Below, one piece after another: positions 1-1,723 of a stretch of 64,000 bases of DNA (positions are counted from its first letter, which is position 1; the number at the start of each line of letters is the position of its first letter). The notes beneath the pieces are model-generated. The model searched no databases. It saw only the letters and a program-made list of their open reading frames with translations, and had not been told where the DNA came from. Both the position numbers and the translations under genes were made by a program. This DNA comes from an uncultured Planctomycetaceae bacterium (GTDB lineage Bacteria > Planctomycetota > Planctomycetia > Planctomycetales > Planctomycetaceae), in the NCBI GenBank assembly GCA_963813715.1, contig CAWFAK010000009.1, positions 64,001-128,000 of the forward strand, written 5' to 3'.

Positions 1-75
1 CGGCGGATTGCCGGATGCCTGACCGGCAGTCTGAGCTGCCGAGCGGCTGGGCAGTAGGGGCGAAAATCGGCGGTG

Positions 76-104
76 TTGCTGATTTGCAGTCTCCAAGTTA
101 GATT
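76..104 (+). promoter_or_regulatory. Putative sigma70 promoter for the small basic ORF
   Basis: TTGCTG (76-81), 17-nt spacer, TAGATT (99-104); GAGGAG RBS at 137-142 ahead of ATG 154. Confidence 0.5.
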
Positions 105-153
105 GTCGTTCGCCAAAAGCCACCGGGGGAAGCACTGAGGAGACGCGAAGGAC

Positions 154-243
154 ATGGGAGTTAAGAAGAGCGGCAAGGGACGACGGAAACTCGGCCGAAA
201 GAAGCGGCGCAACCGCAGCAAGATCCGACATCGCAAGGGTTAG
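154..243 (+). CDS. 29-aa Lys/Arg-rich peptide, candidate small ribosomal or RNA-binding protein
   Basis: My translation is MGVKKSGKGRRKLGRKKRRNRSKIRHRKG*, with 16/29 K+R and no acidic residue; RBS and promoter upstream; below the ORF-track length cut-off. Confidence 0.75.
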   Translation: MGVKKSGKGRRKLGRKKRRNRSKIRHRKG

Positions 244-563
244 TGCCGCACGCGGCGGCCGGGAGCCGACACGCGTCGGCAGTCTCGGCCCTGCGGGCAC
301 TCGCGCCCGGACGCGGCTGGCAACCCATCTCAGGCTCGCCGCATCGTGCGCGCCCGTCCAATCGCCAATCGCCGCTCGTGCGCTCCGGCCCACCCGTCAC
401 GCGGGCAGCGACACAGTTTTCTCGCACGCTTCGCTCGCCGCGTCTCTCGCCAACATCTTGTGCGGCGTCCACGAAAGCCTTAGCCTAAAACGGCAGAAAC
501 CTCGCAAAGTTCCGTGCCGCAGCCCCTGGCAATCTGCGGTGCCCTCTCCGCGGATCCGATTCG

Positions 564-1723
564 ATGGGCCTGTCGGTTTCCTGCGTCAACTGCCACCGCA
601 CCGTACAGGTCAAAAGCGAGCTGGCAGGCAAGACCGTGCGCTGTCCGCGCTGCGGCTCGCCGGTCAGCGTGCCGGCGGCGGCGCAGGCCGAGGAACCGTC
701 GAACGACCGTCCGAGCCGGTCGGGTGCGACTCCCGCGCCCCCTCGCGACGCAGCAGCCATGAAATGGCCCAGCGCAGTTCGTCGAAAAGCGACGCCGGTC
801 AGCGCATTTCCGGCCGGTCTGACGCCAACCAACGTGTTTCCGGCAAGCGCGACTCAGGCAAGTTCGGCGCCGCCAAGGCCGACAGCGCCGCGCACGATCT
901 GGACGACAACGACGAACCCTACATGCCCCGCCTGAAAAAGCGGCGCGGCCCCAACGTGATCGCGACGGCGTTTGTCGGTGCGTGGGAAAGCCTGGGCGAC
1001 CGGCGGCGGGAGTACGCGGTCGGCCTGGCAATCGTCCTCGCCCTCGTCGCGTTGCAACTCGCGTACGGCGGTTGGTTCAGCAGCACGAAGCCGGCACCGC
1101 CTCCCGTTGGTGCCACAGAAGAAGCGACCGACAACGTCGAGCTGCCTGCCAACAAGGGCCCCGTCCCCGTCGTGATCGTCGACGCTGAGAAGAAAAAGGA
1201 CGAGCCAGACAAAGACGCGGACGCCACGGCGCCGCTCAAGCGCACCAAGCCGGTCGCGGGGCAGGACAGCGTCGGGAAGGACAATGCCGCCAAGGACAGT
1301 GCGACTCGAAAGAACGCCGGCCGAATGATCGGGGGCAATCGGCCGGCCCTCTCGGCATTCGGTGCTCGCCAGGATCCGCAGCGCACCCTGCAGCCACCGG
1401 AACATGCAGGACCCACGCAACAGACCATTCCCACGGTCAAAACCGATCACGCCGGGGCGTATAACGCAGCCTCGCCGCCGGAGGTGGGGGAAGTGGTCGT
1501 CGTGCGTCTCAGAGACGGTCTGCACGTCGCCAAGGTGGCTTCGGTCGACGTCTCCGAGTTGCAATGCGATATCGTCGTGCTCGATGCGGGCGCCTATCAC
1601 AAGCGGGGACAAATCAAAGAAACGAGCCGGACCGACACCGTCCGCTTCGGCCAGATGCGGCCGCCGACGTTCTTGAGGTCCAACCGCAACCTGCCGCCCG
1701 ACTTCGGCCCGCCCGCGATGTAG
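564..1723 (+). CDS. Zinc-ribbon membrane protein (frameshift near 740-760)
   Basis: N-terminal CVNC...CPRC finger in the 564 frame continues in the 458..1723 frame, which has one TM helix (YAVGLAIVLALVALQLAYGGWF) and a small beta-rich C-terminal domain. Confidence 0.65.

Follow-up and report, generated by a model that had tools for sequence, protein, structure and literature searches.

The described proteins that come closest to the one reported here are bS22, bL34, eL41 and the mycobacterial bL37. The gene for bL34, rpmH, has its classic position next to dnaA, and the h44/h45 pocket is filled in other lineages by tiny basic helices that look unrelated. For bS22, two reports describe proteins of the Bacteroidota and of Borrelia that are unlike mycobacterial bS22 in sequence and yet sit in this same h44/h45 pocket (PMC12123416, PMC10618245). 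One of them, from P. gingivalis, was a hypothetical protein, with a sequence unlike the mycobacterial one and the same pocket (PMC12123416); the Borrelia protein was unannotated, consists of 61% Lys and Arg, and the authors who described it expect that further species have proteins of this kind (PMC10618245). According to the same reports, bS22 of P. gingivalis, F. johnsoniae and B. burgdorferi (bb0822) are all 30-residue hypothetical proteins that were recognized through cryo-EM only (PMC12123416, PMC10618245).

The window, by which we mean the whole 64,000-nucleotide stretch of DNA from an uncultured Planctomycetaceae bacterium that was analysed, contains near its 5' end a plus-strand ORF whose translation is the 29-residue peptide MGVKKSGKGRRKLGRKKRRNRSKIRHRKG (Table 1). 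This peptide has 8 Lys, 8 Arg, 1 His and 5 Gly, with no Asp or Glu, a pI of 12.0 and a net charge of about +16, and a six-frame search finds a single copy of its gene in the window's own genome. A sequence-only reading had proposed an uncalled gene at this position, standing alone behind its own promoter and ribosome-binding site. When the letters were read again, the start and stop codons and the composition were as described, and so were the GAGGAG motif ahead of the ATG and the two promoter hexamers, 17 nt apart and both kept in the genus. The gene also stands alone as claimed, as the SpoU/TrmL-type methylase gene upstream ends with its stop codon at 20–22 and the next plausible start lies at 564.

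Table 1. Features of the peptide locus (window coordinates)
Feature	Position	Strand	Remarks
-35-like hexamer TTGCTG	76..81	+	within conserved block GTTGC[CT]GATT, 75-84; kept in 11/11 genus loci
-10-like hexamer TAGATT	99..104	+	within conserved block GTTAGATTGT, 97-106; invariant in 11/11 genus loci
Shine-Dalgarno GAGGAG	137..142	+	11 nt before start codon; conserved in genus
CDS of 29-aa basic peptide	154..243	+	ATG 154, stop TAG 241-243
G+C-rich hairpin, no U-tract	257..290	+	14 nt after stop; from folding

To compare the promoter region within the genus, 11 of its 12 loci were aligned, L006 being omitted because it has the same CDS as the window and the same 25 bases ahead of the start codon. 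Among the aligned loci the 17–18 nt that separate the two hexamers vary and the sequence 3' of the stop cannot be aligned, and conserved blocks around a variable spacer of this kind read, at the level of sequence, as the footprint of a promoter. A scan for consensus promoters reported no site at the locus because only 7 of 12 consensus positions match. Taken together, 154–243 is a real monocistronic gene served by a sigma-70-like promoter and a Shine-Dalgarno site of its own. About 150–200 nt past the peptide's stop, the genus loci show another conserved block that resembles a promoter, TTGACAC...GGGATGCT; 10 of the 11 relatives in the alignment have it, and the window's genome has other sequence in its place.

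Downstream of the gene, window 238–330 folds with −52.3 kcal/mol (z −2.3; 3 of 200 shuffles fold as well), and the hairpin within it may tentatively be taken as a 3' stabilizing or terminator hairpin. RNA-library contigs extend beyond it, to 373–426, and the sole terminator-like site that a terminator scan returned is on the minus strand and at chance level. Contigs from the metatranscriptomes of three studies cover the gene (97–373, 134–426 and 167–421), and the upstream gene is covered by separate RNA contigs, 1–59 and 1–132. This pattern fits a separate transcript for the peptide gene, but weakly, as the ends of a transcript cannot be read from contigs; nor can strand or level, and DNA may be present in such libraries. 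With a depth of 2–5, the contigs offer no basis for ranking expression or mapping transcript ends and show no sign of high expression or exceptional abundance, and stretches without RNA cover, such as 443–757 in three of the four runs, carry no meaning.

A chance ORF of 29 codons is trivial, but its conservation is not. We assembled a sample of the class consisting of 40 relatives and the window's own genome (41 genomes, 9 families, 29 genera, one class), and a six-frame search returned one strong match per genome in all 41, with E-values from 1e-10 to 1e-2 and zero internal stops. Loci were read in 40 of these genomes, the match in G028 being left out, and in every one of the 40 the start and stop codons share the same register; a GGAG-type motif lies 5–12 nt upstream of the start in nearly all homologous loci. 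Within the genus, 12 genomes encode the identical peptide from CDSs that vary at 25 of 87 sites (mean nucleotide identity 86.5%, minimum 79.3%). Third codon positions account for 24 of these variable sites and a CGA/AGA exchange for the remaining one, all of them synonymous. With homologues in 41 of 41 genomes and not one amino-acid change in the genus, the proposed gene stands.

The locus is also overlapped on the minus strand by longer ORFs (1–393, 3–236 and 161–472 in the ORF list), and neither Rfam nor Pfam families support or refute a non-coding reading; an Rfam search of window 1–1200 gave no match at E ≤ 1. On these grounds, the opposite strand or an RNA element might account for the conservation, or the ORF might have arisen by chance. 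Against this stand the concentration of the variable sites at third positions of plus-frame codons and the retention of start, stop and Shine-Dalgarno motif across 9 families between which the flanks cannot be aligned. Because the changes within the genus are all synonymous in the plus frame, the overlapping minus-strand ORFs and any non-coding reading are ruled out as the source of the pattern, and we regard a non-gene as extremely improbable.

Across the class, 77 unique class-type CDSs could be drawn from all fetched loci, and in these G7, G9, R10, R11, K12, G14, K17, R18 and R25 are invariant, with H26 kept in 76 and I24 in 75 of the 77. The invariant Arg positions draw on the whole set of six Arg codons and yet never show Lys, and selection must therefore act on the identity of the residue, beyond its charge alone.

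AlphaFold, applied to the 30-residue homologue from locus L034, predicts one helix over residues 6–27 with a mean pLDDT of 79. A Foldseek search of this one-helix model against the PDB found nothing at E ≤ 10, which is what a lone helix would lead one to expect. Look-alikes found by language-model features were unnamed clusters of 32–34 residues first, followed by eL41 (0.90), a cluster that is partly COX24_C (0.87) and HR_L37 (0.84); we treat these as leads only, as composition alone can explain such scores. In the mechanism that we propose, the 29-residue peptide would form one α-helix behind a short glycine-rich N-terminus, and the helix would bind one defined, structured polyanion, being buried in a specific rRNA pocket in the manner of bS22, eL41 and bL37. 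As a first guess, the h44/h45 subunit-interface pocket would be the most likely site. We prefer a shaped rRNA pocket to bulk DNA because the Lys/Arg pattern, three glycines and one histidine are fixed, and also because two hydrophobic positions, 11 residues apart, are fixed. The fixed identity of Lys versus Arg and the predicted single helix would together favour such a specific pocket. Our main reading is that the peptide is a stoichiometric ribosomal protein with its helix buried in a specific rRNA pocket, to which we give a probability of roughly 0.55. The ribosomal role suggested in the sequence-only reading is borne out in part: size, charge and predicted helix match those of the tiny rRNA-buried peptides, whereas the sequence tests against bS22 and bL34 described below failed.

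A protamine-like nucleoid peptide that condenses DNA had been offered as the alternative. The high charge of a 29-residue chain without acidic residues would suit it, the condensed nucleoids of planctomycetes are well known, and the gene is not linked to ribosomal genes in any conserved way. Non-specific binding of a polyanion should, however, tolerate swaps between Lys and Arg, and many positions never swap among the 77 CDSs; G7, G9, G14, I24 and H26 are fixed as well, and a single-copy gene whose RNA contigs do not point to exceptional abundance is not what DNA condensation would lead one to expect. A nucleoid peptide fits the strict Lys-versus-Arg conservation less well than the ribosomal protein does, and we consider it improbable.

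The surroundings of the gene are conserved within the genus only, where trmL is always upstream; in the window, the methylase gene is itself preceded by an ORF whose end we take, by eye, to be the C-terminus of ileS. Across lineages the flanking genes differ (36 and 62 flanking ORFs were scanned) and include those for an aldo-keto reductase, an APP1 phosphatase, an ABC permease, a sulfatase, DnaA, RuvB and PlsX. Among these scanned ORFs there was no conserved ribosomal or translation neighbour, the only candidates seen being one EngA-like fragment and, in the genus, trmL. The peptide gene is an independent unit. A role as leader peptide for the downstream gene was rejected, since that gene is not the same from one lineage to the next. 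Further along the window, a long plus-strand ORF with a membrane-anchor-like segment (458–1723) runs out of frame with the plus-strand ORF 564–935, which has a zinc-ribbon-like N-terminus (MGLSVSCVNCHRT..CPRCG); these are either two overlapping ORFs or one frameshifted gene.

The tRNA/rRNA methylase gene found upstream throughout the genus is one point in favour of another kind of RNA-binding or regulatory micro-protein, such as a cofactor of ribosome assembly or hibernation, or the partner of a different structured RNA or of an enzyme. The same conservation data apply to such a protein, and the lack of a match in Pfam and NCBIfam suits it too. No partner gene is conserved across lineages, however, and to our knowledge the cofactors of assembly or hibernation type are rarely so basic or so invariant. 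We hold these candidates, taken jointly, to be unlikely, and continue with the ribosomal protein as the preferred reading.

The reach of the family was assessed in 301 evenly sampled genomes of the Planctomycetota. A class-type profile matched 20 of them at E ≤ 0.01, 17 strongly, and these 17 all belong to the window's class and are all 17 of its members in the sample; the other three matches are 26-residue ORFs of the form MAKPRRRRK[IV]GSKKR[RK]ARWKVRHK... Iterated profiles added variants of 25–31 residues from families f22, f65, f71, f84, f89 and f93 and from a further f95 genome, most of the 25–31-residue variants carrying an upstream GGAG motif. This brings the total to 37 of 301 genomes at E ≤ 0.02, of which the match in G087 looks spurious, and the core motif common to the family is [GR]RRK[ILV]G[RSQ]KKR[RK]. 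These peptides of 25–31 residues form a family that was met in Planctomycetota alone and that hardly varies within the class to which this genome belongs. The lineage restriction that had been suggested is upheld, and the family is unnamed in the libraries searched.

Deposited matches carry the labels of Pirellulales, Planctomycetaceae, Thermogutta and Planctomycetia MAGs, together with one Kuenenia and two Chitinophagaceae. The MAGs labelled 'Candidatus Kuenenia stuttgartiensis' or 'uncultured Chitinophagaceae bacterium' (L108, L112 and L134) match the query with 68–73% identity; a Planctomycetia-type peptide can be read in L112 and L134, and a motif scan of L108 finds no ORF. The Kuenenia and Chitinophagaceae labels probably reflect mis-binning or mislabelling.

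The exact peptide can be found in public protein collections (sources NCBI, JGI, ENA and Logan), and the gene is in this respect not entirely uncalled; of ten exact peptides from other lineages, a collection of some 15 billion proteins lacks nine and has one, in a cluster of which 10 of 15 members are named, all as 'hypothetical protein'. When 1.84 billion representative proteins were searched with a profile, 276 scored at E ≤ 0.001; the best 150 of the 276 are without exception close relatives, and most of them were called with a spurious extension at the N-terminus. In 4 of 11 protein sequences inspected, the frame continues beyond the peptide's stop, and 3 of these have W directly after the peptide, which is what TGA read as W would give. 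Neither Pfam nor NCBIfam matched the peptide or 25 homologues at E ≤ 10, which places it outside eL41 (PF05162) and bTHX, as we take both libraries to include models of these two. A sequence search of the PDB with the peptide and two family profiles found no chain at E ≤ 10. No paper was found that prints any of five family motifs of 10–11 residues, and the literature on bL37 and bS22, planctomycete ribosome structure, small-protein surveys and L34/rpmH yielded no description of the family. With no hit in Pfam, NCBIfam or solved structures, its novelty is not removed; the family is unnamed in the libraries searched and mostly unannotated. The gene is absent from most annotations, and a family model would put this right in hundreds of genomes.

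Comparison with bS22 and mS38, which the sequence-only reading had named among other tiny basic ribosomal proteins, was made with PF08213 (COX24_C; cut-off 23 bits). This model does not match the peptide locus, its best score in a six-frame search of the same genome is 13.4 bits, at another locus and below the cut-off, and in the class sample it matches 0 of 41 genomes at E ≤ 0.1. In the phylum sample, PF08213 identifies bS22 genes in 18 of 301 genomes, of the form MGSVIKKRRKKMNKHKYKK... Aligned with these planctomycete bS22 sequences by hhalign, the peptide family reached a probability of 2.7%, and the ungapped profile score was no better than that of column shuffles (p about 0.5). As a control, the planctomycete bS22 profile retrieves 18 bS22/mS38 sequences from the PDB. 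Identity with bS22 is not detectable, given that PF08213 misses the peptide and in view of the hhalign result. What survives of the proposed likeness is the general type, with 29 residues, 16 of them Lys or Arg, and a predicted helix over residues 6–27, and not any family or profile match. The bS22 proteins of Bacteroidota and Borrelia were compared with the peptide by description and through the PDB search, in which no chain appeared at E ≤ 10.

No genome of the phylum sample has both a PF08213 bS22 (18 of 301) and the peptide family (37 of 301), and 246 have neither, counts in which related genomes are not independent. This non-overlap is no evidence by itself, because only about 2 overlaps would be expected by chance and the difference is not significant; it is compatible with a replacement of one by the other. 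The PF08213 bS22 genes, which come from other classes of the phylum (L062–L073), have 22–34 codons, and several of them sit within far longer open frames; planctomycete bS22 genes are likely missed or miscalled by gene callers.

The small basic protein bL34 came up for comparison on other grounds. PF00468 matches 223 of the 301 phylum genomes, 193 of them above the cut-off, and reaches the cut-off in 0 of the 41 genomes of the class. A preprint states a loss of L34 in Planctomycetes (bioRxiv 10.1101/2021.01.31.429008), in agreement with this class-wide absence. At the rnpA-yidD locus of the window's own genome (L100, G000:C5:647889-651209) there is no small basic ORF and no rpmH in front. Where PF00468 hits below the cut-off occur in the class, they lie away from the peptide locus. 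A hit of this sub-threshold kind in G016 was rejected as a hidden rpmH, being an ORF that has neither a start codon nor basic character.

These observations raise the alternative that the peptide is a derived remnant or a functional substitute of bL34 that takes its rRNA site on the 50S subunit. In the best ungapped register, G9-R10 of the peptide fall on the invariant G27-R28 of bL34, a marginal likeness (p 0.04–0.09 against shuffles), and dnaA lies divergently 560–740 nt upstream of the peptide gene in three genomes (L031, L032 and L034). The linkage to dnaA is, however, limited to this single lineage, family f6; hhalign gives the peptide family and bL34 a probability of 1.4%, and the HGF-R-RM core that marks bL34 is missing from the peptide. 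Moreover, 14 of the 20 carriers of the peptide outside the class hold a PF00468 match (E ≤ 0.01) at another locus, and in families f22 and f65 it is a full-length bL34 that occurs there. Because both coexist outside the class, the peptide predates the loss of bL34 and is not its orthologue; orthology was rejected, as one of the two per genome would have been expected and 14 of 20 carriers have both. We think it doubtful, to about the same degree as a nucleoid role, that the peptide descends from bL34 or stands in for it. A divergent bL34 was noted in family f95 (L090, L091 and L093), where the HMM match spans only positions 8–39 of 44 and the pattern is K-HGF-L-x-R-x-x-T-S-K-GR...; these genomes have low G+C and carry a 26-residue peptide variant too, and a RACo-type neighbouring gene suggests anammox-like organisms.

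The ribosomal protein proposed here can be specified further, at something short of even odds: it would be a new ribosomal protein family confined to Planctomycetota, an independently evolved occupant of the bS22/eL41 pocket or of a site not yet seen filled in any bacterium, fixed and nearly unchanging in Planctomycetia, the one large lineage that has also given up the near-universal bL34. If the peptide is ribosomal, a major bacterial phylum, structurally unexplored and with no ribosome structure found in the literature, would gain an unnamed ribosomal protein. It would also join the examples in which lineages fill the same rRNA pockets with different tiny basic helices, and would bear on how Planctomycetia manage without bL34.

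Set against the known systems, the peptide resembles bL34 (rpmH, PF00468) in being small and very basic, bL34 being buried in rRNA; bL34 is undetected in exactly the class where the peptide is universal, and the marginal ungapped similarity is to its C-terminal half, whereas HMM and hhalign support is lacking and the two coexist in most carriers outside the class. The eL41 protein (PF05162) and mycobacterial bL37 (HR_L37) are, like the peptide, basic single helices, theirs having 24–25 residues and being buried in rRNA, and by language-model features both rank with the closest clusters that bear a name; the peptide has no match among the Pfam models searched, a set without HR_L37 (PF26427). 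With bS22 of the actinobacterial and mitochondrial type (M. smegmatis bS22 and the C-terminus of mS38), the peptide shares a length of about 30 residues, a Lys/Arg content above 55% and a stand-alone gene. That type is a single (bent) helix and often unannotated, and for the peptide, too, one helix is predicted. The motifs differ, being MGS-V-I-KKRRKKM-xKHK in bS22 and G-x-GRRK-[ILV]-G-x-KKRR-x-R-x-K-I-RH in the peptide family. The kind of protein is already known, that of tiny basic peptides buried in rRNA and missed by gene callers.
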